Assembly (NCBI GenBank): GCA_042852035.1
Contig: BAAFHK010000002.1
Span: 257,823 to 289,822 of the forward strand
From: Candidatus Saccharimonadota bacterium
Lineage (GTDB): Bacteria > Patescibacteriota > Gracilibacteria > BD1-5 > UBA2023
Reading direction: 5' to 3'
Length of the DNA: 32,000 nt
The notes under the pieces are model-generated. The model did no database searches and had not been told where the DNA came from. It saw nothing but the letters and a program-made list of their open reading frames with translations. The position numbers and the translations under genes are program-made. Below are positions 1-32,000 of this stretch, in pieces (the first letter of the stretch is position 1; the number at the start of each line of letters is the position of its first letter).

Positions 1-1
1 A

Positions 2-289
2 AATAAGGATCGGAAGGAGATTGAAGAGATCGATAAGAAATACATACCAGAAAGTTGGTATATTCAACAAATGGTTGAAGGATGATTCCTTGGTCTAATT
101 CTTTTCCTTTTCATCGTCTCAATGATTCTCTATAAGCTTTTCCGAGAAAATATTTTACTTGCTTGAATGTTTTTTTCTATTTTAGTCATGAATTTATTCT
201 TGCATACATTTGAGTCATCTATCGTTTCATTACTTCTTTTTTCTCTCATAGGACTTATTCTTGCTCCGCATGAAAAAAAATCTAGATAA
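2..289 (+). CDS. 3' end of a polytopic membrane protein (5' partial; O-antigen ligase/polymerase-like role is only a guess from context)
   Basis: The frame is open from the window edge to TAA 287-289 with TGA read as sense. The translation is strongly hydrophobic: ...GGFLGLILFLFIVSMILYKLF..AGMFFSILVMNLFLHTFESSIVSLLLFSLIGLILAPHEKKSR. It sits directly upstream of a glycosyltransferase. Confidence 0.45.
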
Positions 290-1415
290 TAAAATTCATA
301 TACTTTTTTGTTCACGACTTGTGAAAGAAAAAGGAGTAGATATTCTTTTAGAAGTAATAAAGAAGTGTCTATCGGACCCTCTCTTTTCTGAGAAATGTAT
401 CTGGCATATAACGAGTGACTGAGATTTTGTGAATGAAATAAAAGATTTGAGCTCTCAACATGAAACAGAAGTAAAATATTATGGAAAAATTTCACAAAAT
501 GATCTTGCTTCGCTTATGAGAAGGGTAGATTTTCTTTATATGCCTTCTCGATTTCTTGAAACATTTTGACTCACTGCCCTTGAATCACTCGCTTGTTGAA
601 CAGGAGTAATCGGTTTTAAGAAGGGTGGCCTGAGGGATTTTATTGCTGATGATTGTTCTCTTGATGAATCTAATCCAATAGAATCAAGTATGAATTTTCT
701 GAAATATTATTTATCATGAAATTATCAATCCAAATCTATTGAAATTCAACCGTATGCGAGAGAAAAATGGGCACAATGATTGAAAAAGATATTTCCAGTC
801 GAATCAAATATCTTTATTCTTCATGACTATAATGAGCGAATTTGATGAGCAGAGGCCTATATTGATAATCTCTGTGATTATCTTCCGAATATTTCATATC
901 GTATAGTTCGTTCAAGTTATCAGGGATTAACATCGCCCATAAAAAGAAGAGTCATGTTTATCTTCTCGATTTTTGCATTCTGGAGATGAATTGTTGTGAA
1001 AAGGAAGTTGTCTTTAGTAAAACCAGATATTATATGGATGCATTCGATTCTTAGGTATTATTGATATTGGTGACTGAGATCAGTAGCAAAATATTCTCAG
1101 AGAAATAATGTTCCAGTCTATCTGAGTCATCATGATGTTTGATTTATTACACCATTTCCTCAGTTTATTTACAGTGAATCACAAATTCCAATTAACGCCT
1201 CACTCCAGGAGTTTCTTAGAGGGTTGAAATGAAAACGGAGGTTTATTGCCATTTTCAAATGGCTTTATATAAGGCTTTTACGAAATGCCTTCCCAAAGAA
1301 TATGAAACATATAATATTTTCCTCGTTCCTTAAAGATCATATAATGAATCATTTTCAAGGTGCTTCAGTGCATATTCTTCCGCATACCTATGATGAGAAT
1401 ATTTTTCACCTATAG
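270..1415 (+). CDS. GT4-family (GT-B fold) glycosyltransferase with apparently circularly permuted domain order
   Basis: ATG 270 to TAG 1413-1415, 381 codons, with in-frame TGAs read as Gly. The first ~165 aa look like a GT4 C-terminal domain: KIHILFCSRLVKEKGVDILL, and PSRFLETFGLTALESLACGTGVIG with E-x7-E at nt 558-584. The following ~200 aa look like a GT4 N-terminal domain: IFILHDYNERIGGAEAYI (GG = TGA TGA at 843-848), KPDIIWMHS, VPVYLSHHDV. The ORF ends ...IIFSSFLKDHIMNHFQGASVHILPHTYDENIFHL, the segment that normally precedes the C-domain. Confidence 0.7.
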
Positions 1416-2486
1416 TTAATCTATCGGACATCATTCCCATGAAATCTCTGAATTTTCGGGATTATATGAGGATATTTTTGATCAGAGAAGGGGAGAGTGT
1501 TCAGATCGTATTGTCTGAAGTATTCATTCGATGTCATCGATTGATTCAACATGCACTAATCTTGTTCGATATTCTTTCACTCATGGGAAGCCGTGGAGGT
1601 ATTGCACGAGATGCTTTCGGGCTTCCATCATTCCTTTTCTTACTTTTGTTTCCCAAAGAAGCTTTCCATGAAGAGACATAATCGTGAGTATCTCTTCTAG
1701 AGTTGGCTCGTAATTTCCAGGAAGAAAACACCAAGGATTTCAAAATGATGCTCGACCAATCATGAATCCATCTAAATTCTTGAGACAGCTTTCCGTTGTA
1801 TTTAAACTTTGTTCGTTTCTGTTATTGGGATGGATAATCTTTTTTACTCCATCTTCATAGCTTAAGATATCGCCATTACATATGACAGGAATTTTTACGT
1901 GTTGCTTGAGATCATATATGCCAGTAAAATCAGCCTTTCAGGTAAATGCTTGTTTGTAAGTTCGACCGTGGACACTAATAAGGTTAGCTCATGCATTCTC
2001 GAGTCCTTTTACAAAGTCTACAAGGAGTTCACTATTTTCCCAACCGAGTCGTGTTTTTACAGAAATAGGAATTTTTACTGCAGAAGACATTTCTTCCACA
2101 ATCCGAAAAGCGGTATCTCGATTGATCATGAGTGAAGACCCATGTCAGCTTTTTACAACCTTCTTTGCTGGACATCACATATTAATATCTATACCAGTTA
2201 TCCCATAGGACTCAATTATCTTTGCTGCTTCTCGAAACATGGCAGGATCCTTTCAGAAAATTTGAATTATGAGAGGATATTCGTTGCTCTTATGTGTGAG
2301 AGCTCGCTTCTGGAGCTCTTTTGAGTGAACTAGTCCATCAGCTGAATAAAATTCTGAGAATACTACCGTCTCGGGCGCTATACTCTTTACAACTTGTCTA
2401 TAGGGGCTATCTGTATACCCATCCATTGGGGCAAGTGCCATTATCGGTCACTTTTCAGCGAGATGTTTCCAAAATTCTTTGTTCAT
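1416..2486 (-). CDS. dus: tRNA-dihydrouridine synthase
   Basis: ATG 2486 to TAA 1416-1418 (356 aa). Dus-family motifs are present: LAPMDGYTDSPYRQ, GIDINMGCPAKKV, ISVKTRLGW, ISVHGRT, MIGRASFGNPWCF. Several in-frame TGAs sit at Gly positions. The track fragment 2253-2441 is in the same frame. Confidence 0.85.
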
Positions 2487-3106: not shown

Positions 3107-3150
3107 TTCTAAAATTGAGAAATTCAGAGCTCCTCTTTAATTCTGGGTAT

Positions 3151-3645
3151 CTATTTCACAATCTCCACTCCTCCCACCACCTTATCTGTAAATAACACCC
3201 CATCGAGGTGATCAATTTCGTGTTGCACGATTCGTGCCGCAAGATCTTCGAGTTTAAGGGAATATTTTTTTCCTTCTATATCAAGGAAATTAACTCGTAC
3301 CCAGGTCCATCTCTCAACAGAACCTGTCTCTCATGGTACAGAAAGACAGCCTTCTTTATCGCTACATTTTTTTCCACTATTTTCGATAATTTCTGGATTT
3401 ATCATCGGGATAGTTCGATAGTTTTCATCATCGTAGTCTTTCATAAGAGAAACGACTATAAGGCGTTTATTATATCAAACTTGAGGAGCGGCGAGTCAAA
3501 CCCCTCAATTCTCCGGATCTTTAATATGTTTTACCATCTCAAGGGCAAGACTTTTATACTTTCTTATTTCTTGAGATTTTATAGGTTCAGATAGAGTTCT
3601 TAGAATACTATTTGATTGCCCAGTTTGGATTTTTAATTTTTGCAT
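3151..3645 (-). CDS. def: Peptide deformylase
   Basis: ATG 3645 to TAG 3151-3153 (164 aa). All three Def motifs are present: GGVGLAAPQVG, EGCLSVPG and QHEIDHLDG. Several of the motif glycines are TGA codons. Confidence 0.92.
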
Positions 3646-3735
3646 ATATTCTAATGTTTGTACAGGAAAGTCTATTTTTCCGATTGAATAATAGGGACTT
3701 TCTCATAAAATTCAAGACAAATAAATGAAGTTGAT

Positions 3736-5052
3736 ATGCTTGAAAAATTTAAAAAACTCATTCCTCTTGATTCCCCAATCCGACTCACTTGGCATTATCT
3801 TATGGGATGGCTTGCTTATCTTTCCTCTGGAAATCCAGCAAAGGATATGATAGTAATAGGAGTAACTGGTACAAAAGGGAAGACTACAACCTGTAATCTT
3901 ATTGCAAAAGGATTGAGTGCGAATGGAAAAAAAATCGCCATGTTTACTACGGTAAATATGATTATTGGCGATATTGAAGAGGAAAATACTCTCAAAATGA
4001 CCACTCCATCACCCTGGCAAGTTTGGGAATTTATACGACGAGCAAAATTAGCTGGTTGTGAATTCCTTATTATGGAAACATCTTCACATGCGCTTTTTTA
4101 TCACAGAGTCCATGGGCTTAGATATGATGTAGCAGTCATGACGAATATATCTCAGGATCACCTTGATCTTCATCGAACAATGGAGAATTATGTTAATACA
4201 AAACTTCTTCTCTTTAAGAATCTCTACAAATATTGAATCCGCAGAGATGTAAGAAAGGTTTGAGTCGTAAATATCGATACTGAATATAGCGAAAAGTTCC
4301 TTTCGAAAGATATCGTTGTTGATGCGATGCATACTTATGGTATATGACCAAGAGCAAGCATTCGTGCAGAAAATATTGAGGCAAAAGAAATGGGTATCTC
4401 TTTCGATGTGCGTATGGCTTCAAGTAAGTTTCATATAGATTCCAAGCTTCAAGGGGAGTTTAATGTTATGAATATTCTTGCTGCCACAGCTGTGCTTATT
4501 TCTCAAAAAGTACCCCTAGAAATTATAACCAAAACAATATCACTTGTTGGATGAGTGCCAGGAAGACTTGAGGAGATTCCTAATTTAAGATGATGAAAAA
4601 TATTTGTTGATTATGCTCATACCGAAGAATCCCTCAGGAGTGTTCTTGATACTATAAAAAAGATTGAATGAACAAAGCGTACTATTCTTCTTTTTTGAGC
4701 CACAGGTGATAGAGATAAAACAAAACGCCCGAAAATGGGGCGAGTTGCTGACACTATGGCTGATGTAATTATACTCACGGACGATGATACATATACTGAG
4801 GATTCACTTGCAATTATTAGGCAAGTAACCGAAGGGATTTCGAGAAGAGAAGGTGAGAATTTCTGGATTGTTCCAGATCGTGAAGATGCTATCCGTACAG
4901 CGCTTCTTATGCTTCACCCTTGAGATGTTCTCCTTGCCGCAGGGAAGGGCGCAGAAACTGTTCTTGTGACTCAAGCTGGCCCGATACCCTGGAATGATAG
5001 GAAGGTTATTGAGCGAATCCTTATGGAGATCGAGAGTCAGGTGATAGCTTAA
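3736..5052 (+). CDS. murE: Mur ligase family protein, MurE-like, lacking most of the N-terminal UDP-binding domain
   Basis: ATG 3736 to TAA 5050-5052 (438 aa). The P-loop GVTGTKGKTT is already at residue ~43. Other motifs: METSSHAL, MTNISQDHLDLHRTMENY, FVDYAHTEESL, TGDRDKTKRPKMG, LAAGKGAE. An in-frame TAA at 3706-3708 precludes an N-terminal extension. Confidence 0.8.
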
Positions 5053-5438: not shown

Positions 5439-5939
5439 CTAGAGTAAGAATCAGAGAATATCGCTTGCGATTTCTTGAGGGGTTCTTCCTTCTATAGGAA
5501 ATCTGGGATTAAAACTTTGGTAGTGCATTCCTCGAGTGTGCATAAGGTTTCTGAAATCATTGGCATTTTGTGCAAGGGGTCGAACATTTATTGTATCTGC
5601 CATTATTCTCTCAAGGAGGAGTCAAATCGGTCATGAAAGAGAAATAATACGACCTTTTGATCTATAAATTCTCCTTACATTTTCTTCGTCGAGTAATGAG
5701 CCGCCTCAAAGAGAGATGACCCGGCTCCTAGAGTTTTGAATGACGGATAATAGGGTTTGTGATTCTAATACACGAAATACAGAGATTCAATAATGCTTTA
5801 TAAAGTCTGGTATGCGTACTTCGTAGAGTCGTTCAAACTCGGTATCGAGGTCGACGTGATGTGTCGAAAGTTTTCGAGCGAGTTCTTTTCCGACAGTACT
5901 TTTTCCAGATCAAGGAGGTCAATAGAGAAAGAGGTTCAT
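5439..5939 (-). CDS. aroK: Shikimate kinase
   Basis: ATG 5939 to TAG 5439-5441 (166 aa). N-terminus MNLFLYGPPGSGKSTVGKELARKL, with the P-loop glycines at 5919-5921 and 5910-5912 encoded by TGA. Also ISLGGGSLL. It starts 4 nt after the aroG stop. Confidence 0.8.
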
Positions 5940-5943
5940 AAAA

Positions 5944-7047
5944 TTACATCTTAGTTCTTCTTTTTTCAACAGATTTACTTAAAGTCTTAAGCATTTTCAA
6001 GGTTTCTTCCCATCAAACACATGCATCCGTGATGCTTTGACCATAAATCAATCACTGTGGATCATCTTTACCTGGGGTAAATTTTTGAGCTCATGCTTCG
6101 AGATTACTCTCAATCATTACTCATCAGATATGTCTCGATCATGATCAAATCTGTTCGCTAATATTATCAACAACTTTTAACTGATTTTCATGATTTTTCT
6201 GACTGTTTCAGTGACTTGCATCAATCATTATTCTACTTCAATATAATCAAGCTGCCATTAGTTGTTCAGCGGCAGAAAGAACATGTTGAGCTGAGTAGTT
6301 TGGATTTTTTCATCCCCTAAGAATAAGGTGGCAGTCTAGATTTCACGTTGTTTGCACCATGGCAACTTTTCCACTTTTATGAACAGAGAGAAAATGATGT
6401 CATTTTGATGCAGCCAAGATGGCATCAAGTGCAATCTTTATATTGCCATCTGTTCAATTTTTGAAGCCAACAGGTGAGGAAAGTCATGAAGTTAATTCTC
6501 GATGGACTTGACTTTCCGTTGTTCTTGCTCATATGGCTCACCAGGCGATAAGGTCAGCTATATATTGAGGACTAATTACATCAAGATACTCTGAACCTGC
6601 AGGAACTCATAGTCTGTTAATTTCTAGAAGAAGCTGTCGTGCAATCCTTAATCATTCATCAATTTTATATGTTTCATCTAGGTATGGGTCATTAATAAGT
6701 CATTTCCATCCAACAGTAGTTCGTGGTTTTTCAAAGTATACACGCATTATTATTTCAAGAGTATCTTTATATCTTTTTCTTTCTTCAGCAAGATTTCGAG
6801 CATATTCGATTGCTCATGCAGGGTCATGTACTGAACATGGTCAAACTACAACTATAAGTCTATCGTCTTTTCCATGAATAATTCTTGATGCTGCAGATCT
6901 TGTATCGGAAACTTGGGTTTCAATAGAAGTGCCTGCTATAGGGAAAAACCGAATTAAGTCTTCTGGCGGGGGAAGTGGTTCAATATTTTGAATTCTTTTA
7001 TCATCAACAGTTGATGTGATATCAGAGGGGGTAGTATTCAATGCCAT
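5944..7047 (-). CDS. aroG: 3-deoxy-7-phosphoheptulonate (DAHP) synthase, class I (AroF/G/H type)
   Basis: ATG 7047 to TAA 5944-5946 (367 aa). It is colinear with E. coli AroG motifs: [96 protein letters not shown]. By my count there are 22 in-frame TGAs, all at Gly positions. Confidence 0.92.
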
Positions 7048-7197: not shown

Positions 7198-8376
7198 TTA
7201 TTTTTGGGTACTTTTGGAGGATATTGACTTTTTTGTATTTGTCAAATCTTTTCTTCCACTTCTTACTCAAACAGGGTGAGTATTTCTTTTTCGATATTCA
7301 TCGAATGTAATACTAATGACTCAAGCTATAGGTATAGCAAGGATAATTCCTAGCACACCACCAAGGGTAGCACCAAGAAGCATCACAATAAATACAAAGA
7401 AAGGCGATAGATCAAGGGCTCGACTCATAACATATGGTACAAGAAAATCATTTTCGACTCTTTGAATAAGAAGATAGAGTATAGTAATGATTAATGCAGC
7501 CTTCCAAGAAATTCATAACGCAAGAATCACAGCGGGTATGAGCGCTATAAGAGGTCCAACATAAGGTATAAATTCCATAATACCACTAATGAGCGCAAGA
7601 GTAAAAGTCTTTCCAAGAGAAATATCAAAGAGAAAATCAACTAATGAAAGTCAAAAATAGGTTACTATGAATATACTAATAGAAAGAATAAGCATTGCTC
7701 TCATCCATGCAGTGAAGACTTGTTGAGTTTTTGCAAAGTGTGTGTTGAGAAAATTCTTTTTTTCAAGAGAAACAGAGTCAATAATATATTTTCCTATCGA
7801 TTTTCTTTCGAGAATCATCAGAAATGTTGAGATGGCGATAAGAAGCCAATTTGTTATAGCTCAACCAACCTGTGACATAATTGAAATTCAGCCCGATGTA
7901 ATTGATGATATTTGGCTCGTAAGGAAAGATTGTATGTTTCATGCATTTTGTTTGATGATATCAAATGTATGATCAATATTTTTTTCCCCAAAGAGAAATA
8001 GAATTGCTCTCTCTATATATGGATTCAAATGAAATCACTCTATTCCTTGAGTAAGATATATTTCTTTGGCATTATTCGTCCAGCTTGTAACTGTTCCGAT
8101 GCTATCAGATATATAGTTGCTTATTATAGGTATAAGTGTTCCAACCACGATAAGAAGCAAAAGTATTATTGCGATAAAAACACCAATAACTGTAACCCAA
8201 GCCGGTATCTTATATTTTTCCCCTAAAGTAACTAAGGGGGATATTATAATCGTGAGAAAACCAGAAATAAGTAGTATAAAAAAAATCTCCCTTGAGATAT
8301 AAATACCATAACAAAGCAGCCCAATAAGAATAGTGACAATAAGCTTTTTTATCCAAATAAGAATCTCTTTTTCCAT
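7198..8376 (-). CDS. AI-2E family transporter (PerM/YhhT-like, UPF0118) permease
   Basis: ATG 8376 to TAA 7198-7200 (392 aa). Multiple TM helices. Characteristic C-terminal half: ...LISGIMEFIPYVGPLIALIPAVILAL..., FLVPYVMSRALDLSPFFVFIVMLLGATLGGVLGIILAIP. Confidence 0.75.
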
Positions 8377-9057: not shown

Positions 9058-9918
9058 TTAGTTAATGTCATTTTTCAAAATTTGAATTTCTCAATCTATC
9101 TTTTTGCAGAGTGAAAAATAGGGAATTGACATATTCCTTATGAAAAATATTTCATCTTCTTTTATGGAAGAGGGTAAAAGTTCTTTGGTTATTTTCTTTC
9201 AATGAATGATTTCATTCATTGTGGCAATAGATCATTCATAAGTATGAATAGTATGAAAAATACTATTTAATGAAATTGGAGATGGATTTTCAATATTTGA
9301 GCACTCAGATATTTGACAATGAAAGTTTTCGCCATCAATCGAGATTCGTCTGAGTTGAGTAAGGTATCATCACTCAACCCCAAAGAATTCTCAGAGAAGA
9401 GGTCAGAATGATCGTATATAACAACCAGATGAGACCTTCAATCGTATCTTTATTTCAAGATTTCACTTTTCTATAATATCAGCTTCAAATACTTTAATTG
9501 GCCTTTTTTCAATATGAAAATCCTTTCACTTTCGAGCTATTTCATAGGAACGTTTCCCATTTATGTGAATTGCACTATATTTTGGTGGAGTCTGATCTTT
9601 TTGTCACAAGAGAAAGTCAATAATTTCGGATTCAGATTTCCACTTAAAGCCGGTTACATCAATAGGTGTTATAGGCATCTCAGTATCATAAGATTCTGAT
9701 GTTCCATCAAAACGTATGGTCGTAATATATTCTTTCTTTGATGATTCAAGAAGAGGAATGAGTTTTGTACTTTTCTCTGTAGCAATGAGCAAACATCATG
9801 TAGCAAGAGGATCAAGAGTTCCTGTGTGTCACATTTTTTTTACATTGAGTTTTTTTCTTAGCTGTCGAATCACTCAGAAACTTGAAACACCGCTTGGTTT
9901 ATCGATGAGGTAAAACAT
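9058..9918 (-). CDS. truB: tRNA pseudouridine(55) synthase
   Basis: ATG 9918 to TAA 9058-9060 (286 aa). MFYLIDKPSGVSSFGVIRQLRKK..., with catalytic motif GHTGTLDPLATG, QTPPKYSAIHINGKRSYEIARKG and SSGCYIRS. Confidence 0.88.
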
Positions 9919-9926
9919 AGAAAAAG

Positions 9927-10745
9927 TTACTCAGAAAGCTCAGGATAGCTTGCATTTCTTGGATGACTGAGAAACCGAGGAGGGTAAGTCCAACGCCATT
10001 TCTTGCTATCAATAAGTCCGTCAACACCAAAAATATTGTAGTATCATAAATTAAGTAGTACTTTTCATACTATATCTTTTCTTTTTATGAAGTGACTTTT
10101 TGAATCATCATTGAGGCAAATTTTAAAACACGATCGAGAATCAGCAGAATTATTTCTGTTATCACCCATAACCCAATAATATCATTCTGGAATAGTAAAT
10201 TCATTTGTTTTTACGTTTTCAGGGAGCCGAGTCTGTCAAGCGTTTGCACTTGAGAGATATTTTTCAGAAATTTTAATAAACTTTTCACTGTTTGGAGTCT
10301 TAATAAGTACTTCACCATCCTCAAATCGAATAGTATCACCAGGCGCTGCAATAACACGTTTAATGTAATATTCTTTCTTTCTATCGACATGAGGAGTAAT
10401 GACGACTACATCACCACGCACAGGATCTCCAACATGTATCGGGAGAATTGATAAAAAGTTATATAGTAATTTCTCGACAGTTCCTGCGCTCGTTGATGGC
10501 TCTTTATAGACAACAGGGGTATTAAGATATGAGAATTTATCAACTATGATATATTCTTTATCATGATAACTTGTTTCCATCGAGCTTCCATTAATTCTGA
10601 AAGGCGTTACGACAAATACGCGAATAGTAATTACGATAAGAAATATAATGACTAGATCACGCAAAAATGCTATAAATTCTTGGAGCGTCTTATTTGAATC
10701 TTCTAAGCTTTCGGTCTCAAAGTGAGATTCTTGTTTATCTCTCAT
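9927..10745 (-). CDS. lepB: Signal peptidase I
   Basis: ATG 10745 to TAA 9927-9929 (272 aa). An N-terminal TM helix, then INGSSMET (catalytic Ser box), YIKRVIAAPGDTI and YYWVMGDNRNNSADSR. The track ORF 10236-10745 continues through TGA. Confidence 0.88.
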
Positions 10746-10777: not shown

Positions 10778-13537
10778 TTATTTACCGTGACACTGTTTAA
10801 ACTTTTTTCAACTTCAACAAGGGCAGGGATCGTTTCTTCAAACTCAAGCGTATTTTGCTTTTTCAGAATCATTTTCTCATGTAACTTTCATTATACGTAT
10901 ATCAGGATCTGCTTCAGTGAGCGGTTCTGGCGTATACTCTGAATGTCACATGTGTCCGGCTCTTGCTGTCATTGATTGATCAAATCCCTCTTGAGCACTG
11001 TCAGTATATTTCTCGAGAAGTGATGCCTCAAGGTTTACTTCATCGATTGATTCACGAGGCCTTGCTGTGAGAAGTCATTTTATGACACGAACTCCAATTG
11101 TATCAATAAGAATTACAAATTTTTCATAGGCCTTTTCTTTATATATAATGAGAGGATTTTTCTGTGCATATCACTCAAAGGCAACTTCTTCCCTGAGGTG
11201 GGCCATACTGTCGATATGATTCATCCAGAGCTCATCGATAGAGGCAAGCGTAAGTCTTCTTTCAAATTCTGCAAATTCTTCTTCTGTTCCAGTGTTTCGA
11301 AGTGATTCAATTTTTCCAGAGAGAAGAGAAAATACTCGACTCTTCGCTTCATCGAAGCTTCAAGCCTGAGCAAGATCGTCAGCATGAATTACTTCAGCTT
11401 CAGCAAATTCATTCACAAACTCCATAATTTGGACTCAGATTTCAGAAGAGTATTCCTTTTCTTCTCCTTGAGCCATATCTATAATTCTAGAAATTTCCCT
11501 TTGAAGCATCTCAAGAATTTCACTGTGAATGTCGTTTCATGCAAGAATTCTTCCTCTTCGTGAGTAGATGGCAAGTCGATGATGATTGAGTACATCATCG
11601 TACTCAAGAATATGTTTTCTTATATCAAAATTTCTTCATTCAACTTGTTTTTGAATCGTGGTAATATTCCTCATGAGCTGCTTACTCTCAATAAGTGGAT
11701 CACTCTCAGGATGGGATTCAAGATTCGCTAGGATAGCAAAAAGTCGATTTCATCCAAATATTCGCATGATATCATCTTGAGGAGATAGCATGAATTGGGA
11801 GAGTCCTGGATCGCCCTGTCGTCATGATCGCCCTCTGAGCTGGTTATCGATACGTCGTGTTTCGTGTTTTTCTGTTCCAATGACATAAAGTCAACCAAGT
11901 GGGTACTCTTGCATTCCTGCAGCTCATTCGAGCTTAACTGATCCTGTAAGGGTACGGACACGTTCATCGATTTTGATATCTGTACCTCGTCATGCCATAT
12001 TAGTTGCTATAGTCACTGCTCAATATTGACCAGCAGAAGCTATTATATCAGCTTCACGTGCATCTTGTTTTGCATTGAGTACTTGATGTGGAACTCATTC
12101 TTTCTCAAGAAGGTTAGAGAGATACTCACTTTTTGCTACCGAAACTGTTCCTACAAGTATAGGCTGACCTTTTTCGTGAAGGGCTTTAATTACTCGTACA
12201 AGATAGGCATACTTTCCTTTCTCTGTTCGAAAGAGGAGATCTCAACGATCGCTTCGTTTAATCGGTTTATTGGTTGGAATTTGTATCACCTCAAGATGAT
12301 ATATCTTGTAAAACTCTTCTTCTTCAGTTTTTGCAGTACCAGTCATACCTGCAAGTTTTGGATACAGTCTGAAATAATTCTGAAATGTTACGGAAGCAAG
12401 TGTGCGAGACTCTTGTTGTATGGTCACCGATTCTTTTGCTTCAATTGCTTGATGAAGTCCATCAGAGTATCGTCTTCCTGGAAGGACTCGACCTGTATGC
12501 TCGTCAATAATAAGAATCTCATCATTTCGAACGAGATAATCGATATCCTTTTTATAGACACTAGCTGCCTTCAGAGCATTCTCTACATGATGAAGATCAT
12601 TATAATGTTGGCTTACGTAGATATTATCAACTCACAGAAACTCCTCAATCTTTCGTATGCCTTCTTCGGTAAGTGTTGCAGTTTTTTGTTTCTCATCAAT
12701 TTTATAGTGAATTCCCTCATCGAGTGAGCGTGCAAGAGCTGCAAATCGTGGATACTTACTCGTAGGTTCAGCATCAGGAGCGGAGATAATGAGCGGAGTT
12801 CTTGCTTCATCAATGAGTATGGAGTCAACTTCATCAACGATTGCAAACCAACGCTTTCTCATAACCTGCCTATCATCTCGAACAGCCATATTGTCACGAA
12901 GGTAGTCGAATCAAAGCTCATTATTGGTTGCATATACTATATCTGCACTATATGCAGCTTTTTTTTGCTCAAATGATTGTCAATGGGTGATGACATCAAC
13001 CTTGAGACCAAGAGTATTGTAAATTATTCACATCTCAAGAGCATCACGTCGAGCAAGGTAGTCATTAACCGTAACAATGTGTACTCAATATCCAGTAAGA
13101 GCATTTAGGTATGCAGGGAGGGTAGCAACAAGCGTCTTTCCTTCTCATGTTCGCATTTCGGCAATATTACCATCATGAAGCGTTAAGGCTCAGATAATCT
13201 GAACATCATAAGGTATCATATTCCATGTTATGGATTTTTCTCATCAGATACTGAATTCTTGTCCATAAATCAATTCACAAGCTCTTCTATGGAGAGCAAA
13301 TGCTTCATGCTTTATTGATTCGAGTATTTCACGGATTTTAATTTTATCCTCATCTTTTTCTATATCGAGTCATTGAAATCGAGATTGAAATTCATGAGTT
13401 TTTGCCTGAACTTGATCTATAGAGCTGATTTCTTCACGAAACTTTGTTTCAATAGATTTAATAATTTCAAGTTCTTTCTGATATTGTTTGAGTTTTTTTG
13501 TACTTGGGTCACCAAAGAGGAGAGATAAAAGCCACAT
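10778..13537 (-). CDS. secA: Preprotein translocase ATPase SecA
   Basis: ATG 13537 to TAA 10778-10780 (919 aa). Motifs: [96 protein letters not shown], and the C-terminal zinc motif [15 protein letters not shown]. Confidence 0.95.
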
Positions 13538-18334: not shown

Positions 18335-18962
18335 ATTCTGCAGCTCAATCTTCTGTATTTTCAGTCTTTGCTGTTGCGACTCCTACATCTGCAACTGATT
18401 TTACTTCTGTTTCTTCTTTGTGCTCCTTCACGGCATGAACGAGTGCTATTGCATCTTCAGGGTTATTGAGGATGTGAAACTTCTTTGTATCCACAACAAG
18501 ATCAGAAACATGGAGCGCTTTTCCTATATGATCAAGTGGAGCTACATCAAGTTCAAATGCATCAATAACATCACTTGGAAGACACTTTACATCTACGGCT
18601 TCAAGAACTTGGTGAAGTTGTCCACCTCCAAGTACTGCTTGAGAGTTTCCAACAAGACGTACTGGAATTTTTACATGAACTTCCTTTTTCATATCAACTG
18701 TAAGGAAATCGACATGGAGCGCTTTTCCGGTAACAGGATGACGCTGAAGTTCGTGTACAAGAACCGGATAAGAATCTTTACCAACCTTGAGTGTAAAGAC
18801 ATGATTTTGTCCTACTTCACGGAAGAGTCGTGTAAAGTCTCCTACACTTACACTGACGCTCTTCGAAGGGACATCCTTACCGTATACGACTGCTGGAACA
18901 AGACCGTTTTCACGTGTTTCACGAGCAGTTTCGCTGCGGAGCTTTGCTTCGAGAGAATGCAT
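18333..18962 (-). CDS. rplY: 50S ribosomal protein L25 (long Ctc/general-stress form)
   Basis: ATG 18962 to TAA 18333-18335 (209 aa; the track ORF continues through one TGA near the end). LEAKLRSETARETRENGLVPAVVYGK...HPVTGKALHVDFL is typical of L25/Ctc. Confidence 0.88.
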
Positions 18963-19089: not shown

Positions 19090-20244
19090 TTAGCCTCAAG
19101 AAAGGGTTCCTGCAAGGTTCATGATTGGCTGAAATATACCTACGGCGATAAAACCAATTACTACCGCCATCACAGCAAGGATTATTGGTTCAATCATCTT
19201 TTGAATACTTCCAATAGCAATATCAACTTCTTCATCGTAGAAGTCTGCAATTTTGATAATTGTTTCTCCTACTTGAGCTGTTTCTTCACCTACTCGAAGC
19301 ATTGATACGAGAAGATCTGGAAAAAGAGGGTCGTCTTCAAGTGACTCTGCCATTTTCATACCATTTTTTACATCATTTCGTAGAAGGAGGAGGCGTTGGT
19401 GGTACACCTCGTTTCCTACGGCACTTGATACAATACGTATTGCTTCGATTACGGATACACCACTTGAAAGAAGGTTTGAGAAAACTCGAGCAAATCTTGA
19501 GAGTACTACTTTTCTTAGAAGCGCTCAAAATACAGGAGCATGGAGAACAAGGCTATCCCAACGGTATTTCCCAGATTTTGTTTTTTTCCATACTCAAAGT
19601 AACATATAGGCAACGCCGAGGGCAATTCCAACTACGAGCCAGTTTGCTTTAAAAAAGTCACTTGTTTTGATGATTAATTTTGTGGCGTCAGGGAGTTTTT
19701 CAGGGTCTCCAAAAAATCATGTTAGCACTGGAATAACTTTCACCATAAGAACGGTAACTATACCAGCCATACCAACTATAAGAAGTATTGGATAGGTCAT
19801 AGCACCTTTAATTTTTCTGGTGATTGAGTCAACTTTTTCTGTTTGGTCTGCAATTTGAAGCAGGGCCATATTGAGTTTACCGGTTCTTTCTCAGGCTTCG
19901 ATAATAGAAATTTCTGCATCAGAAAAACATCAGTAATAATCTGCAAGGGCTTCATGCATTGTTCTTCATCACTGGACCCGGTCTATCATAAAATTGTAGA
20001 ACTTTATCATATTCTTATCTTTTTCTTGTTTCTTAAGCGCAGAAAGGCTTTTTAAAACAGTAAGACTGGCATTTACCATTGTTGCCATGATTCGAAAAAA
20101 TATCACCTTTTGTCTGAGTTTAATCGTTGCTCATTTAAAGAGAAGATTTTGTAGATAGGAGAAATAGTTTTCCTGTTTTGTTTCCTCATGGGATTCTTGA
20201 ATATCAAGAATCACTAGATCGGATGTGGTGTTTTGAGTTGGCAT
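19090..20244 (-). CDS. pilC: GspF/PilC-family inner-membrane platform protein (type IV pilus or competence pseudopilus)
   Basis: ATG 20244 to TAA 19090-19092 (384 aa; the apparent stop at 19096 is a TGA Gly). Two GspF-type repeats are present: ...DAEISIIEAGERTGKLNMALLQIAD... and ...LLVSMLRVGEETAQVGETIIKIADFYDEEVD..., with three hydrophobic segments. Confidence 0.85.
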
Positions 20245-20280: not shown

Positions 20281-21543
20281 TTATACGTTCTCTTTTGCTG
20301 CTGAGTATACTTCTTCAAGCGATGTACGTCCATTAAGAGCCTTAATAATACCATCTTGTTCGAGAGAAATCATCCCATCAGTAATAGCTACTTCATTAAT
20401 CATTGTAGCACTCGCACCATCGAGGATCATTTTCTTTACATTCGGGGTAATTTCGAGAATTTCATAAATACCAACTCGTCCTTTATATCATATATTATCA
20501 CACTCTGGACATCATACTGCTTCATAGAAGATTGGATTTTGGAGTATCTCTGTTGGGATTCTCCCAAGAAGCTCATCTTTTGATGTTCGTTTCAAAGCTT
20601 TTTCCACTGAATTCTTGAGTCTTGGCTCAAGCTGCATCATTGGAATTGCTTTTTTACAGTGTTGGCAGAGCTTACGAATGAGACGTTGAGCGATGATTAC
20701 ATTGATGGATGCTGGAAGAAGAAAGGCTGGTATTCCCATATTAAGAATACGAGTTAAGGTTTCAGCAGCCGAATTCGTATGTATCGTTGATACCACAAGG
20801 TGACCAGTAAGCGCAGCTTCAATCGCGACATTTATTGTCTCATGATCACGAATTTCTCATACCATTATGATATCGGGGTCTTGACGTAGGGCAGTACGAA
20901 GTCAGAAAGCAAAATTATAACCAATATCAGGAAACATTTGTGATTGATTGAGTCCATCAATCTGACTTTCCACTGGATCTTCGAGTGTCATGATGTTCAC
21001 ATCAGGCGTATTTAGATTTGTGAGACAAGAATACAGTGTCGTTGATTTACCAGAACCAGTTGGTCATGATGTTAGAATGATTCAGTTTGGGAGGGAAATT
21101 GCTTTTTCAAGAAGAACTTTATTTTTTCATTCGATACCAAGTTGAAACAAATCGGGAATCTTTTTTGATTTATCAACGATACGCATTACTATCTTTTCTC
21201 CATGAACGGTTGGAAGTGTTGAGACACGAAGGTCGAGAGCCTTATTATTAATTACGGTTGAGAGGCGACCATCTTGTGGTATTCTTGATTCATCGATCTT
21301 TAGGTTCGAGAGAATCTTAAAGCGAGCTACTACTTGTTGATGGAGAAAATTTTGATATTCAAGAATTTCTCTTAGCTCACCATCGACACGATACCTGAGT
21401 CTCACAATATTGGTAAGAGGCTCGATATGGATATCAGATGATCACATTTCTACCGCACCTATAATCATAAGATCACAGATTTGTCATATGTTTTCTCCTT
21501 TGTATAATTGCTCTTTAAGGATTTCAATCGAAGTATTTGGCAT
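20281..21543 (-). CDS. pilB: GspE/PilB-family secretion ATPase (short form without the N-terminal N1 domain)
   Basis: ATG 21543 to TAA 20281-20283 (420 aa). Walker [11 protein letters not shown] (first Gly = TGA 21064-21066), Asp box, Walker B DPDIIMVGEIRD, His box [12 protein letters not shown], and the tetracysteine motif CQHC...CPEC typical of PilB/GspE rather than PilT. Confidence 0.9.
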
Positions 21544-23725: not shown

Positions 23726-26026
23726 TTAGAGAAGTTCTGGAAATATGGACTTTCCCCAGCTCATAGTCATAACTTTTTCATCAGTGAGAAATATTTGAAT
23801 TCATGGATTCGAGCTCTTGGCTCTTCCGATAAGCGTATTTATGGTATCAATTGCCATAGGTATACTGTAGAGTTCAAAATTATTCGACATTCCCACAGTT
23901 TTTGCAAGGTAAATAGGATCGTTCGGAGGATCAAACGGAATCTTAGTTACATTCAGGGTCTCGGTGACTTTCCATACTTCGCTTTCATCTTTCCAGGTAT
24001 CAATCAATCAAAGAAGAATAACTCTTTTACCCGTCTTATAAAGATGAAGAATTTTTGATTTCCCTCCGGAAACACTCTGAGTTATTATATCGTAGTCATA
24101 GTATTCCTTTTGTAATTGAGTATTTAAGGTACGAAGTTGTTTCAAATTTGTACCAAGAATAACAATATGATTCCCTTCAATAACCAAAGAATCATTATAG
24201 GTCATGAATTTATTTTGACTGTATGATTCTATGTGTGAAGTGCTGAATCCACATTCTTCATTAAGAAATTTCTTTATTGGAGTGCAGGCAATATTATACC
24301 CCAAAAGTATACTATTTTTTCATCATTGATGTTTGAGGAAATTCTCTATCGCTTTCTTCTGGCTTCGTGGTACAAGAGAGAGACTTGATTTTCAGTTTTT
24401 TATTTCGAGAATAAAGTTTATATTTGGATCTCCAATTTTTATAACTCGAATGAGTTCGTTGAGGATATCTTTGAGTCTTCTATATGTTATTTCTTGAATG
24501 AGGGTTCAGCTTCTGATGCTATTTTCATATTCAATCATAGTGGTTTCAAGCTTCTGTGATGCCCATACAAGCCATATATATCACCGATGCCAAAGGTCTT
24601 TTTGTGTATAAAAGTAGGTTTCACCATATTCACCTGGAGGAATCGGATTTGGGCCAGTCGGTCTTGGTACTACTGAAGAGGCTATTTCTTCAATTATGGA
24701 AAGGCTATATATAAACTCATCCCTGAGTGATTCTTCTAAAAAGGGGAGCTCTCATATATCTTTTTGTATAAGATTCCAGTCAATTATTTTTTTATCTCTA
24801 AATAAGAGCGCATTTTCTAATTCTACAATATCTCGAATAATACAAGTTTCTATATTGTGATCATAAGTTTCATTTTTAAGATCTTTGTTGTAGCTTTCTG
24901 CAATAAGTATTTCCGCTATTTTGCTATTTTCAATATCTTGATTTTGGAATATATTCTCTTCATCATCTCTAAGTTCAAAGAGGTATTTGTAGGATTGCTC
25001 ATCACCATACCATTTTATTTCATCAATACTTCCAGTCTGTGTCGTATTAATCCAATGAATGAGGCGTATGATAAGAATTGATTCTTTTCGCCTCCAAGTA
25101 TCTTTCATAATCCATGCTCAAAGCATCCGAAGGGAAATATAAGAACTCCTCTCTCGTATATGAGAAACCTTATAATCGGAAGAAAGCTTGTCCTTGAGCC
25201 AGAGTGATTGTTTTTTTGAGGAGCTAATTATGAGTAATTTACCGTTCTTTACTGCATTATCGATGATTGCTCTTTCTTCATCCCAAGAGGGAGAGAGCGA
25301 TATTATGCTATATTGATTTTCATTCAGTTTTGTTATCTTTTCAGATTTTTTGCAAGTTTTGTACTGAAGAAGTGGGTTGTTCCATGAGTCGCTCGAATTT
25401 GAGTTTCCCATGATTGAAAGGAGTGTATTAATGGCTCCACTTTCATCTTTATTTCTTGCAAATTCCCAAAGGGAAAGAAGAGGCTCACCGAGCTTTGATA
25501 TCTCAGTAAGATAATGTAAAAAGAGTTTCACTGAAAGTTTTGTATCATCGAGAGCTCTGTGTTCACTTCCATCATCAAAACCGTATTTTTTTGCAAGAAA
25601 TCAAAGATTAAGGCTCTCAGCATCTCCTGAGAAAATTTCAGAAAGTTCAAATGTGTCAAGAATCGTGTGCTTTCTTAAGCTGATACCATGGGTTTCCAGC
25701 ATTGATACATCAAAAAGTACGTTATGTCCAACAATTATACTTTCTTCTTCTATGAATGCATTTACCTTTTCTCGAACTTCACCCCATTTTGACTTTCCAC
25801 GAACCATATCGTTGGTAATTCCAGTAATCATCGATATATGCTCATCAATCCCCCTTTCAGGATCGATAAGCATACTTCTCTCTTCTTCGTGTGTAATTTG
25901 AAAGAAGTCCCCATCTCGTTTGAGCTTGAATTTTATTGCAGCAACTTCGATAATTGTATCTTTTTGAGGAGAAAGCCCAGTTGTCTCGAGATCGAGAGCC
26001 ACGAATGTATAAGACGAAGGATTCAT
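23726..26026 (-). CDS. dinG: DnaQ-type 3'-5' exonuclease fused to a DinG-like helicase scaffold with a degenerate Walker A
   Basis: ATG 26026 to TAA 23726-23728 (766 aa). Five track ORFs (25601-26026, 25118-25531, 24752-25108, 24008-24304, 23801-24007) lie in one frame, joined through TGA. Exo motifs: FVALDLETTGL, IVGHNVLFDVSML, and HRALDD just after the first TGA. The C-terminus GKRVILLGLIDTWKDESEV...TKIPFDPPNDPIYLAK matches the DinG/XPD pattern (LLGT.SFWEGVD...LPF.PP.DP). The expected P-loop position reads LSPSWDEERAII, with no GKT/GKS. Confidence 0.7.
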
Positions 26027-26204: not shown

Positions 26205-27452
26205 TTAATTTTTTGGAAGCTTATTACGAAGGAAGGCTGGAATATCATAATCATCGCCTGAGTTTGCAGGTCCAGTGCCTGGAAGGGGAGACTGCACTGG
26301 TGGGCGGTTGTTTATTGGAGTGTGAGGTGTTGATTTTTGAAAGAGATTGCTCGTGCCAAATCCTCGAGAAAGTGCTCCAAGTTGAGCATTGGATTCTTCA
26401 GAGAATCAAGTTGCAATAACTGTCACCTTGATTTCTCATGTATAGCGTTCATCGATTGAGGTACCGAATATAATATTTGCATTTGGATCGCATGATTCAG
26501 TAATCATTCGAGCAGCTTCATCGATTTCAAACATGGATAAATCTGTTCCACCTGTAATTGAGAGGAGAAGTCATTTTGCTCCATTGATAGAGAGTTCGAG
26601 AAGGGGTGATTCGATAGCACCTCGAGCAGCTTCAATAGCACGATTTTCCCCACTTCAATATCAGATACCCATAAGAGCTGATCAGGCATTTTCCATCACT
26701 GATCGCACATCAGCAAAATCCACATTAATAAGTCCAGGGTGAGTAATGAGATCTGAGACTCATTGCACACCTTGCTTAAGAATCTCATCTGCTACATTAA
26801 ATGCCTCAAGAAGAGGAGTTTTTTTATCAATAATTGAGAGAATCTTATCATTAGGAATTGTAATGAGTGTATCAACCTTTTCCTTGAGTCTTTCATATCA
26901 TTCAAATGCTACACCGCTTCTTCTTTGTCCTTCAAATGCAAAAGGTTTTGTTACTACTCAGACTACAAGAGCTCAGAGTGATTTTGCAATTTCTGCGATA
27001 ATCGGCGCAGCACCAGTACCAGTACCACCACCGAGACCACAGGTAATAAACACCATATCAGCACCAGTAAGAATCTGCTTCAGTTCTTCGCTTGATTCTT
27101 CGGCTGCTTTTTTTCCAATTTCAGGATTAGCACCAGCTCCAAGTCCACGAGTGGTAGCTCGCCCGATATTTATTCTGGTGGGAGCCTTCGATGAAAAGAG
27201 TGCCTGAGCATCCGTATTAACAGCAATGAACTCAACCCCTTCAACACCGCTCTCAATCATTCGATTTACAGCGTTATTTCCACCACCTCCAACACCAACG
27301 ACTTTAATATTTGCTATAGGAGAAATATACCCATTTACATTTACTTCAACATGACTTTGTGGGACTGGTGCTGCAGGAGGAGTAACGGGATTAATATTGG
27401 TTCTCAGGAGTTTCTTGAGACGATCTTCACTTGAAGAATGAGCTTGAGACAT
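26205..27452 (-). CDS. ftsZ: Cell division GTPase FtsZ
   Basis: ATG 27452 to TAA 26205-26207 (415 aa). Motifs: [15 protein letters not shown], the tubulin signature [31 protein letters not shown], and the C-terminal peptide [12 protein letters not shown]. By my count 10 in-frame TGAs match Gly positions in E. coli FtsZ. Confidence 0.96.
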
Positions 27453-27494: not shown

Positions 27495-28733
27495 TTAGGG
27501 CATAAATTTTTTGAAGATAGCCTTAAGTGAAGACATGCTCTTTCCTGGTGAAAATGTGAATTTAAATGGCTTTTTCGCAGTTCCGTATTTCTGTGCAAGG
27601 AGAAGCGTTCCAACAACTGAAGTATAGATAGGATCGGCAATTGATGTACCACTGATGCCTTCAACCTGTTCTGGTACGCCAATCGATGCAGGAAGTCTGA
27701 GATATTCTCGGGCTCTATCTGCAAGTCCTCTCATTTTTGCTCCGCCACCAGTGAGAATAGCTCCTTCAGGAAGCATTCCATCCCGTCAGACGTTTTTCAA
27801 CTCCATTACAATATGGTGAAAAATTTCATCATAACGAGCTCGTATGATTTCATTCATGAACTTACGAGATATGGCATTTGTATCGATATTCGAAATCTTT
27901 GAGAGATCAAGTTGCTCGTCATAATCACTTGCCATACCTTCTCCAAAATTCATATCTCCATATTCAACCTTAAGTCTCTCTGCAGTATCTATTGAAATAC
28001 GAAGGCCAAGTGCCAGATCGCTTGTTACATGTTCCCCACCGATAGGAATAACTGCAGCGTATATAAGTGCTCCTTCTTCATAGACAGCAATATTAGTTGC
28101 GCTTGATCCTATATCAACAGCAACGACACCAAGTTCTTTCTGTCGGCGAGAAAGCATAGCCTCACCTGTAGCAATAATATTTGGGTAAGTGTCCATAATT
28201 TCAACTCCGATATCATTCACTCCTTTCTGGATATTCGAAAGAGTATTTGCCCCAATAGAAATAATATGGGAACGAACTTCGAGCTTTTTTCAGCTCATTC
28301 CAACAGGATTTTTGATACTATTCTCGAGGTCAAGCGAGAAACTCTCAGGGATAACCTTAAGAATAGTTCGATTCATAAGATCAACTCAACTTTGACTCAT
28401 ATCGAGGGCACGATTTACATCTTCTTCAGTTACATCAAGTCCAGCAACTGCTACAATTCAGGATTTTCTCGTAATATCTATATGTATTCCAGAAACTCAG
28501 AGGCATATATGAGCTGCTTGCTCACCAGTCATGCGCTCTGCATCACCCAAGGCGGTATCAAGATTTGCCTTGAATTCTTCCATGTCAAGGATATTTCCTT
28601 TTCGGATTCCTCGCGATTCTGCCACTCCTATTCCGAGGATGCGAAGTTTTTTATCATCGGTCCACTCGCCGATGATGGCTTTAAGTTTTGAGCTGCCTAT
28701 ATCTATGGCGACGAGCTGTTCTCCAGATACCAT
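27495..28733 (-). CDS. ftsA: Cell division protein FtsA
   Basis: ATG 28733 to TAA 27495-27497 (412 aa). Actin-fold phosphate motifs VAIDIGSSKL and VVAVDIGSSATNIAVY, then IPIGGEHVTSDLA and ILTGGGAKMRGL, with a C-terminal amphipathic helix SSLKAIFKKFMP. The track fragments are in one frame. Confidence 0.95.
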
Positions 28734-28961: not shown

Positions 28962-30434
28962 ATGGCAAAAACCTTCTATATAAAAACCTTCGGCTGTCAG
29001 ATGAATTATGCTGATAGTGAAAAGATAAATATGATTCTTCTTTCTGCCTGAATGAGAAAGGTTATCGATCCAACAAAGGCAGATATTCTTATTATGAATA
29101 CTTGTTCGGTTCGGCAAAAAGGTGAAGACAGGGTATTTTGATTTATAAATGAAGTTTCACGCTATCATAAGAAGAACCATACGGGAATACATCCACTTTT
29201 TGGGATTACGGGTTGTATGGTGAGAAAATCAGGAATGGCTAAAAGATATCTCATAGATGAGGCATGAAACATGAAGAATGAATTCTATAAGAGGCACGGT
29301 ACAAGGAGGATTGAGCTTATTAACGATATAAACTCACTTTTGAACTATGATGATGAACTTTTCCTTCGATCCCAAAGTATTGATTTTACATTTCGTATCG
29401 AAGAAGTTACCTTTCTTACAAAAATCCTTTCCCTTATTCTTGGTGAAGATATTGGAAATGATGCAAAGTGGAATGAATATCTTGCCGTCAGACAATATCA
29501 AGAAAATCCTGCAAGTGCTAACATAATTATTCAAACCGGATGTGATAACTTCTGTACTTTTTGTATCGTCCCTTATACGCGTTGAAGAGAGACTTCACGT
29601 TCCCAGGATGATATAGTTTCAGAAATTCGTGAGGTGGTTTTATCTGGCACCAAAGAGGTTACCCTTCTTGGGCAGAATGTAAATAGTTATGGGAAGGAAA
29701 CTCGGGCTAAACTTTGGAATAGCGAAGAGCTTACTTGGGCGAGTAAAAATGTAAAAACTCCCTTTCGAGAACTTCTCGAAGAGGTCAATAAAATAGAATG
29801 ACTTGATCGTATTCGTTTTACAAGCTCGAATCCTCATGATATGACGAAGGATATCCTCGATGCTCATTTTGAACTTCCAAAAATGGGGAAATATCTTCAT
29901 TTTGCCCTTCAGTCAGGGAGTGATACTATGCTTAAGCGTATGAATCGAAAACATACATACTTAGACTTTAAGAACCAAGTCCAATATCTCCGTTCTAGAG
30001 ACCCACTCTTTTCTATTTCTACCGATATTATTGTTTGATTTCCTGGCGAAACACTTGAAGAATTCGAAGCAACTATTCATGCTATGCGTGAGTGTGATTT
30101 TGACTTTGCATATATTGCACGATACTCTCCTCGTTCATGAACTTTGGCTACGGATAAGTATGAAGATGATATATCGCCAATTGAGAAGGCGAAAAGATGG
30201 AATATACTCAATGATATGCTCCAGTCATCCGTTCAAAATCGATCCAAACTTATGATTTGAAGAGAAGATGAAATTCTCATTTCTTGAAGGGGAAAATTCA
30301 ATGATTGGGTATGACGAACTAAGAATTTTAAAGAGGTATATATTCCGGAGAGCTCAGAGGTAAAAATTGGAGATATTGTAAAAGTGAAGATTACAGAGCT
30401 TGATGGGTGGGTGTTACGTGGAAATCTCCTCTAA
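28962..30434 (+). CDS. miaB: tRNA-i6A37 methylthiotransferase (MiaB-type radical SAM MTTase)
   Basis: ATG 28962 to TAA 30432-30434 (490 aa). N-terminal MTTase cysteines: [32 protein letters not shown]. Radical-SAM motif [19 protein letters not shown], then [31 protein letters not shown] and a C-terminal TRAM domain. The CxxxCxxC lies roughly 40 aa later than in E. coli MiaB. Confidence 0.88.
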
Positions 30435-30487
30435 GGGGTTATCTGAGAAATCTTTCCTTTTTTAAATGTTTCTCTATACTCAAGATC

Positions 30488-32000
30488 ATGACTTTTCAAC
30501 AAAAGGTAGAACGGTTCTTTGAACCAATTCTCTGACAAAAAATTCTTGTTGCTCTTACTATTTTTAAATATTCAACTTGGGTACTCAATAGTCTTTTTTC
30601 AGTGTATATTGTTCGTGAGAGTGTAAAGCTTTATAGTTCCTGAGATATAACATGACTAAAGAATTTAATACTCGAGTTTACTCTTTTTATAGGAATCTTT
30701 CTTCTTATTGCATTTATTATGAGGAGAGTGGATTGGCCTTTTCTTTGGCATGAGATACAGCGCTGGATATATACGAAGTATACCCGTGAGATTATCGAGA
30801 TGGACGGGAATTCTCTCGAAAAGATTTGAACCGGTCGTATGATCGCAGTAATTACGAGCGCTGAGAAGACCTGGATTGATGGAATTCTTCATGTTCTTAA
30901 GGAGGGTACAAAGATTGGAATCGTCTCATTTTATCTTTTTTTTCTGCTTTTTTCAAAGAGCTTTTTTCTTGGAGGTATTTTTCTCCTTCTTCTCATATGA
31001 CTTCATATTCTAGTTGTTTATCTTGATACGAAAGCTCATAAACATCGAGCAATTCGTACAGAAAAAAAAGCAGAATTTACAAGGGAGTTGGTTCGTATTA
31101 TTATGTCTCGTAATGATATACTTCAGTCATGATGATGAGGGGGGATTTTTAAAAAAAGTAAGCAGCTTATTCATGCAATGCAAGAGGCAAACAATGGTAT
31201 TAATCTTGCAATATTTCAGATTTTTAATTTGGTCCGAGTGCTTGCAGCGCTCTTAAGAATTACATTCCTCTTAGGGGTTCTTTTTATGTATGATAAAGGA
31301 GTAATTTCTACTCCAGATGTTGCATGAATGTTTGCGCTCCTTATTGTTTTCGAGAGCTTTCTTTTTGACTCTACCGAATTCTATAAAAATTTCACTAAAG
31401 ATTTTGCAGATATTGAAAAACTTTGGGATATGTTCGACATGGCTCCGAAGCTTAAGTGATATCATTCATGAGCTTCTTTTTCACATCAAAACTCTCCCAT
31501 TGTTCTCCACTCCCTCTCCTACACCTATACAGATACTCCTATATTCCAAAACCTCTCTCTCACCATAGAACAAGGAAAGAAAACCGCATTAGTTGGTGCC
31601 AGTGGTGGAGGAAAAACTACTCTCATGAAACTCATAGCAGGATACCTTCATCCCGATGAAGGATATGTTTCTGTATTTTGAAATAGACTCGATAAAACTT
31701 CCCTTAAAACCTACTATCCCCACATAGGATATCTCACCCAAGAACCAGGAGTCTTTGATGCAACCATACGAGAAAATCTTATAAGCGCCCTCCCAACCCT
31801 TCAAAGAGAAGACTCAATCCCTCACGAAGAAGACTCAAGTCTTCAGACAGAATCATCTGACACAGAAACAAAACATACCGAAGAAGCAAAACATACCGAA
31901 GAACAAATCATCAAAGCTCTTCGTCTCGCTCACTGTGATTTTGTCTTTGATCTCGAAAAATGACTCGATACAGAAATAGGTGAACGATGAGTCAGACTCA
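30488..32000 (+). CDS. ABC exporter, fused permease plus ATPase (3' partial)
   Basis: ATG 30488, with the frame open to the window end. The N-terminal half has multiple TM helices. In the NBD: YTYTDTPIFQNLSLTIEQGKKTALVGASGGGKTTLMKLIAGY (Walker A), Q-loop YLTQEP, and GLDTEIGERGVRL leading into the signature motif at the window edge. The frame contains TGA TGA TGA GGG GGG at 31130-31144. Confidence 0.85.
31871..31906 (+). repeat. Tandem 18-nt coding repeat (KHTEEA / KHTEEQ) inside an acidic insertion of the ABC ATPase domain
   Basis: aaacataccgaagaagca followed by aaacataccgaagaacaa, in frame. Confidence 0.7.

Follow-up and report, generated by a model that had tools for sequence, protein, structure and literature searches.

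Glycine as the very probable reading of TGA in a 32-kb stretch of a Gracilibacteria genome

The stretch analysed here, 32,000 nucleotides of contig BAAFHK010000002.1 (assembly GCA_042852035.1; hereafter the window), is almost certainly a piece of a genome of the Gracilibacteria (Candidatus Altimarinota), within the Candidate Phyla Radiation (CPR) or Patescibacteria, that uses NCBI translation table 25. We put the probability of this reading at about 0.97. Under this code UGA is a codon for glycine (Gly), UAA and UAG are the sole terminators, UGG encodes tryptophan (Trp) and the remaining codons, including CGA and CGG for arginine (Arg), are standard. An initial annotation, made from the letters of the window, had already claimed that the whole window is recoded in this way with TAA and TAG as its only stops, and both the structure of the open reading frames (ORFs) and the residues found in alignment columns bear this out. 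The assignment is not new: the code is known, the lineage is known and the genome has already been annotated accordingly. Scientifically, the window adds nothing to the reading of UGA as Gly in Gracilibacteria, which goes back to 2013 and was validated by proteomics in 2014.

Open reading frames and stop codons

The counts that follow refer to a set of 27 curated genes, with 10,013 codons in total, which cover around 92% of the window; the GC content of the window is 36.5%. When TGA was read as a sense codon we found 24 ORFs of at least 300 amino acids (aa), the longest of 920 aa, versus a single one under table 11. That single survivor is the gene of the trigger factor (tig). This comparison of ORF lengths between codes had been set as a check beforehand, and it clearly separated the two codes. 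If TAA or TAG was removed from the stop set instead, and TGA was kept as a stop, merely 2 or 1 ORFs of this length were obtained, respectively.

The in-frame codons of the 27 genes give the same picture. TAA and TAG are not seen even once, although chance alone would give approximately 486 of them in 10,013 codons with this composition. TGA is seen 230 times in frame, versus around 185 expected from composition, which is about the random expectation. The TGAs appear at a density of 23 per 1000 codons and are present in 26 of the 27 genes, all of them in frame and with no frameshifts. Regarding the 3'-ends, the claim that all the 26 coding sequences ending in the window stop at TAA or TAG was right, with 21 genes terminating at TAA and 5 at TAG.

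Furthermore, the Pfam matches of the window proteins run colinear and near full-length across the TGAs, as illustrated by SecA_DEAD (positions 4-289 of a profile of 290), T2SSE (7-368 of 370) and DAHP_synth_1 (8-267 of 270). The ftsZ, secA, ligA and dinG-like genes (Table 1), which had been described as colinear and in one frame, are indeed single open frames ending at TAA or TAG, with Pfam matches that span the TGAs. The statement that every long conserved gene is cut by TGA was too broad, since tig, with its 443 aa, is free of TGA and the gene of the ribosomal protein L25 has just one.

Genes that look fragmented under table 11 might also be expected if the standard code applied and the stops were real, as the result of pseudogenes, assembly errors, selenocysteine or programmed read-through. 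We consider the probability of this explanation practically negligible. It has to face the 230 TGAs that lie in frame in 26 of the 27 genes with no frameshift among them and with TAA and TAG wholly absent, as well as the identical usage in six independent metagenome-assembled genomes (MAGs) of relatives. The density given above is also far beyond any known usage of read-through or selenocysteine. Regarding selenocysteine in particular, the genes are ordinary housekeeping genes, and cysteine was found at just 2 of the 134 TGA columns of the comparison with Escherichia coli described below; therefore, the TGAs are not selenocysteine codons.

The residue at TGA positions and the other codons

The codon composition already distinguishes between Gly and Trp. 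In the 27 genes there are 455 GGN and 75 TGG codons besides the TGAs. GGN and TGA together represent 6.8% of the codons, which is a normal Gly content, whereas TGA and TGG together would put Trp at 3.0%. With 230 occurrences, TGA is the most used Gly codon in the window, ahead of GGA (200) and GGT (152).

For the comparison with E. coli K-12 we used the orthologues of 14 genes (loci L007-L015), with TGA aligned as a neutral X. Gly, with a background frequency of 7.8%, occupied 74 of the 134 non-gap TGA columns (binomial P ~6e-46), and Trp occupied none. In the same alignments GGN faced Gly in 175 of 267 columns and TGG faced Trp in 10 of 30. Two larger samples agreed with this profile of residues. 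For SecA, a TGA-free fragment of 129 aa served as query, and 41 full-length representatives, less than 50% identical to the SecA of the window, were realigned to the X-containing protein. Gly was the commonest residue at 17 of the 30 TGA columns and made up 50% of their non-gap cells, against a background of 6.4%. The few Trp (W) residues at these columns all came from two sequences. One of them, P0027, contains as many as 67 W but only 11 G, and therefore it is a mistranslation under code 4 from another organism that reads UGA as Gly. For 3-deoxy-D-arabino-heptulosonate 7-phosphate (DAHP) synthase we used 118 homologues, whose named sources are mostly Burkholderiales. Here 13 of the 22 TGA columns were invariant Gly, Trp was absent from all the 2,596 cells, and the TGG columns were Trp in 100% of the cases.

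The TGAs listed in the initial annotation for particular motifs were verified as in-frame codons. These are the first Gly of the PilB Walker A motif (21064-21066), which is also Gly in E. coli HofB; the leading Gly pair of the AroK P-loop (5919-5921 and 5910-5912), with both residues being Gly in E. coli AroK; the GG motif (843-848) of an ORF that resembles family 4 glycosyltransferases (GT4); and the motif sites of DAHP synthase (for example 6841-6843, 6700-6702, 6538-6540 and 6529-6531) and SecA (13145-13147 in MRT-G-EGKT). Other TGAs of secA are, for example, those at 12911-12913, 11990-11992 and 11891-11893. However, the claim that the TGAs fall on universally conserved Gly, and not on Trp, has to be restricted. 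The enrichment in Gly and the absence of Trp in E. coli hold, whereas residues 97, 107 and 155 of the peptide deformylase (Def) and three sites of FtsZ are not universally Gly. In Def, residue 100, within GxGLAAPQ, is Gly in all the solved structures listed, but the other three residues proposed as conserved align with N/D, Y/G and D/G, respectively, in the alignments with PDB structures, and in E. coli residue 107 is D and residue 155 is E. In FtsZ the proposed match with Gly of E. coli is found at seven of the ten columns.

These columns bear directly on the Mycoplasma/Spiroplasma code (table 4), under which UGA would be Trp. Such a code predicts an ORF structure identical to that of table 25, the genome is low in GC, and there are public translations of near-identical relatives in the style of code 4, with W at the TGAs (P0273 and P0276). 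Nevertheless, it is hardly credible for this window: Trp is missing from all the 134 TGA columns of E. coli, versus a third of the TGG columns, and from all the cells of the DAHP synthase set, where TGG is always Trp; there is no exchange between TGA and TGG with the relatives; and the implied Trp content of 3.0% is implausible. Moreover, P0273 and P0276 carry W at conserved Gly positions, and database entries that put W at universally conserved Gly positions, such as P0027, are mistranslations. The systems known to use table 4 (Mycoplasmatales, Entomoplasmatales and some insect endosymbionts) are like the window in having a sense UGA, a termination at UAA and UAG that, in the window, would be independent of release factor 2 (RF2) and an AT-rich context. 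They differ in the meaning of the codon, which is Trp in them and Gly in the window.

The close relatives used for comparison were six syntenic MAG loci (L001-L006), labelled as Candidatus Gracilibacteria or Patescibacteria group, with identities of 69-75% in the trigger factor (Tig). At the codon level, a TGA of the window faces GGN in 206 of 370 cells (56%), TGA in 82 (22%) and TGG in none. The same TGA usage was found in these six independent MAGs, and TGA is as well conserved as GGN, if Gly and TGA are both counted as matches of the latter. As judged from these alignments, TGA is swapped with GGN as a synonymous codon would be. The claim that Trp is still encoded by TGG was also confirmed, since besides the E. 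coli and DAHP synthase columns given above, TGG columns were Trp in 87 of 109 cells of the relatives.

Regarding the other codons, a tabulation in the manner of Codetta showed every codon apart from TGA to be standard. In E. coli, AGC faced Gly in 9 of 32 cases, but this apparent signal was rejected, because the sites were variable or shifted and AGC faces mainly serine in the relatives. The tabulation matters for CGA and CGG, as an extended code of the Absconditabacteria type would add CGA and/or CGG as Trp to UGA as Gly. Some Gracilibacteria are indeed predicted to read CGG as Trp (PMC8629427), and CGG is rare in the window (21 codons, 2.1 per 1000, a small sample). However, CGG faces Arg or lysine in 19 of 25 cells of the relatives and never Trp, and CGA is abundant (123 codons, 12.3 per 1000) and faces Arg in 37 of 83 cells of E. 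coli and in 205 of 263 cells of the relatives, and no Trp was seen opposite it either. Both codons behave as Arg and therefore the window uses plain table 25; we regard the extended code as very improbable. The Absconditabacteria variant (PMC8629427), from a sister lineage, resembles the window in reading UGA as Gly and differs from it in these two codons. Of the Gracilibacteria/Absconditabacteria type of genome proposed initially, the first name stands, on the evidence of the relatives and of the taxonomic identifier given below, and the second does not. Among the known systems, table 25 (Candidate Division SR1 and Gracilibacteria) is like the window in UGA as Gly, in UAA and UAG as stops, in UGG as Trp, in the low-GC CPR genome and in lineage, and no difference emerged in what was compared.

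Decoding of UGA and its uneven usage

In the mechanism that we propose, UGA would have a tRNA-Gly of its own as decoder, whose anticodon is UCA, prfB, the gene of RF2, which would terminate at UGA, would have been lost, and release factor 1 (RF1) would terminate at UAA and UAG, as the literature on the lineage leads us to expect. The Gly identity elements expected of such a UCA tRNA are G1:C72, C2:G71, G3:C70 and U73.

In that literature, tRNA-UCA-Gly is the expected decoder of UGA (PMC8629427), and in BD1-5 prfB was undetected in any of the genomes then available, while prfA was detected (PMC6851277). UGA as Gly was predicted in 2012-2013, as cited in PMC8629427 and PMC6851277, and Campbell 2013 and Rinke 2013 are the sources of table 25 as cited in PMC8629427. 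The assignment was validated by proteomics in BD1-5/Gracilibacteria in 2014, when 97 peptides matched the Gly database alone and 3 matched the Trp database alone (PMC4032931), and the systematic screen of genetic codes of 2021 is that of Shulgina and Eddy (PMC8629427).

Some points weigh against the reading of the window under table 25. Firstly, E. coli has a residue other than Gly at around 45% of the TGA columns, although this is ordinary divergence because the GGN columns behave nearly alike (34% non-Gly). Secondly, ARAGORN found no tRNA genes in the window or in around 110 kb of the loci of the six relatives. Finally, a low level of ambiguous UGA decoding would be compatible with the sequence comparison. 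Regarding the rest of the decoding apparatus, neither prfA nor prfB was among the window genes according to Pfam, a result that refers to these 32 kb only, and Rfam at gathering thresholds gave no match in the window.

The share of TGA among the Gly codons is uneven across genes (chi-square P = 1.7e-8). It is 0/25 in tig, 1/13 in the L25 gene and 5/42 in ftsA, versus 15/23 in truB and 22/32 in the DAHP synthase gene. The relatives show a similar pattern, and the tig orthologues of the six have 0-2 TGAs each. The genes where TGA is avoided as a Gly codon (tig, the L25 gene and ftsA) are presumably highly expressed.

This unevenness might mean that UGA is mainly Gly but ambiguous, either through partial termination or because a tRNA with U34 confuses UGA and UGG, so that selection would act against TGA where decoding has to be accurate or fast. 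The depletion in tig, the L25 gene and ftsA and the high share in the DAHP synthase gene, repeated in the relatives, would fit such a scenario, and so would the single peptides in which Hanke et al. saw another residue at UGA (PMC4032931) and the wobble risk raised in PMC8629427. Nevertheless, plain selection on codon usage, for instance by a tRNA of low abundance, accounts for the same gradient, and the sample consists of the sequences of 27 genes. We consider ambiguous decoding rather unlikely.

The DAHP synthase gene has the second-highest TGA share in the window and a GC content at third codon positions of 0.21. The pair that it forms with aroK (5439-7047, minus strand) is missing between murE and the gene of the AI-2E transporter in the relatives L001, L004 and L006. 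Furthermore, its product has around 69% identity to proteins of Burkholderiales (Aquabacterium, Hydrogenophaga, Albitalea and Tepidimonas), versus 57% to E. coli AroG. This pattern suggests that the gene was probably gained horizontally from a Burkholderiales donor with the standard code, followed by full amelioration and by many changes from GGN to TGA. As the nearest homologues belong to standard-code Burkholderiales, all its TGAs would therefore have arisen after its entry into the lineage with code 25.

It is conceivable, and we offer it only tentatively, that the usage of UGA as Gly is a graded and evolving trait, near-absent in presumably highly expressed genes and high in the imported DAHP synthase gene. 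If this were true across the genome, imported genes could offer a natural clock of how fast, and in which direction, stop codons are captured. In addition, the donor clade could hint at what serves this uncultured Gracilibacterium as host or prey.

Public records and gene content

The Gly translations of DAHP synthase, SecA, FtsZ, PilB and AroK, together with the TGA-free Tig, are exact matches to NCBI proteins within the range GAB0175066.1 to GAB0175083.1, and therefore table 25 is already in use in the annotation deposited for this genome. The matched proteins are labelled as MAG, Candidatus Altimarinota bacterium, have locus tags HHAS10_* and are all encoded on a single contig of 289,822 bp, and the spacing of the accessions between these marker proteins agrees with the gene count of the window. 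The Trp translation of FtsZ had no record in the protein collection searched. Candidatus Altimarinota has taxid 363464, the same that is given for Gracilibacteria in PMC8629427.

In the public data we found three types of translation for this clade: proteins under code 25 (NCBI), versions with W at conserved Gly positions under code 4 (FtsZ in JGI/IMG and Logan, as well as the W-rich SecA P0027) and fragments under table 11 (ENA). Among the last type, the FtsZ cluster contains fragments of 127-131 aa that stop exactly before a TGA. Thus, the fragmentation predicted for any standard-code annotation is actually visible in public data. Mistranslated CPR proteins sit in clustered databases and such errors propagate; table 25 has to be set before genes are called or homology is studied on this contig.

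Table 1. Identified genes of the window, with the number of in-frame TGA codons
Gene or product	Position	Strand	Length (aa)	TGA	Remarks
GT4-like glycosyltransferase	270..1415	+		12	Pfam; TGAs include the GG motif
tRNA dihydrouridine synthase (Dus)	1416..2486	-		11	Pfam; 5/7 aligned TGA columns Gly in E. coli DusB
Peptide deformylase, def	3151..3795	-			Pfam, PDB alignments; invariant Gly of GxGLAAPQ = TGA 3496-3498
Mur ligase (MurE-like)	3736..5052	+		9	Pfam
Shikimate kinase, aroK	5439..5939	-	166	7	Pfam SKI; GAB0175066.1
DAHP synthase (AroG type)	5944..7047	-	367	22	GAB0175067.1
AI-2E family transporter	7198..8376	-		8	Pfam
truB	9058..9999	-		15	Pfam
Signal peptidase I, lepB	9927..10745	-		4	Pfam
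secA	10778..13537	-	919	30	Pfam SecA domains span TGAs; 13/30 columns Gly in E. coli; GAB0175072.1
Trigger factor, tig	13678..15009	-	443	0	No TGG; GAB0175073.1
NAD-dependent DNA ligase, ligA	15251..17347	+	698	11	7/11 columns Gly in E. coli
Ribosomal protein L25/Ctc	18333..18962	-		1	Pfam
PilC-type T2SSF membrane protein	19090..20244	-		9	Pfam
PilB-type T2SSE ATPase	20281..21543	-	420	9	Pfam T2SSE; GAB0175079.1
DinG-like protein with N-terminal exonuclease domain	23726..26026	-	766	10	16 TGG; Pfam RNase_T and Helicase_C_2
ftsZ	26205..27452	-	415	10	7/10 columns Gly in E. coli; Gly version = GAB0175083.1
ftsA	27495..28733	-		5	Pfam
miaB (radical SAM methylthiotransferase)	28962..30434	+		10	Pfam; 6/10 columns Gly in E. 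coli
ABC transporter	30488..31999	+		14	Pfam; open at the window end

Some antisense ORFs of a first-pass greedy list (17688-18968 and 27489-28745 on the plus strand, 2607-3203 on the minus strand) were dropped as artefacts. The true genes put in place of such artefacts are ftsA, the L25 gene, lepB and two small hypothetical genes, all on the minus strand, and a hypothetical gene on the plus strand (2628-3089). Regarding overlaps, those of truB with lepB (9927-9999) and of def with murE (3736-3795) appeared because the first ATG was taken as the start. The alignments of relatives and the Pfam matches begin at Met51 of Def and Met28 of TruB, which removes both overlaps, and these are probably the true starts (at around 3645 and 9918, respectively). 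In ligA we found seven Pfam families. The first ones are, in order, those of adenylation, OB, zinc finger and HhH, and three overlapping BRCT models follow at the C-terminal end.

Six ORFs had no Pfam family above threshold; they lie in 21550-23609, 17339-18257 and 8435-8989 on the minus strand and in 2628-3089 on the plus strand. Two of these ORFs (385 and 296 aa) are directly downstream of pilB and pilC and have 46-52% identity in the relative L001; by their position they may be components of pilus assembly. Another of these ORFs encodes a protein of 110 aa that has a weak match to Thioredoxin_3 and a tail rich in cysteine and Gly.

The GT4-like ORF has an unusual order of domains. Glycos_transf_1, which is normally C-terminal, is found at residues 6-128 and is followed by a weak match to Glyco_transf_4, which is normally N-terminal and here begins at the GG motif encoded by TGA-TGA. 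This ORF may encode an enzyme with permuted domains, or it may be a remnant left by rearrangement.

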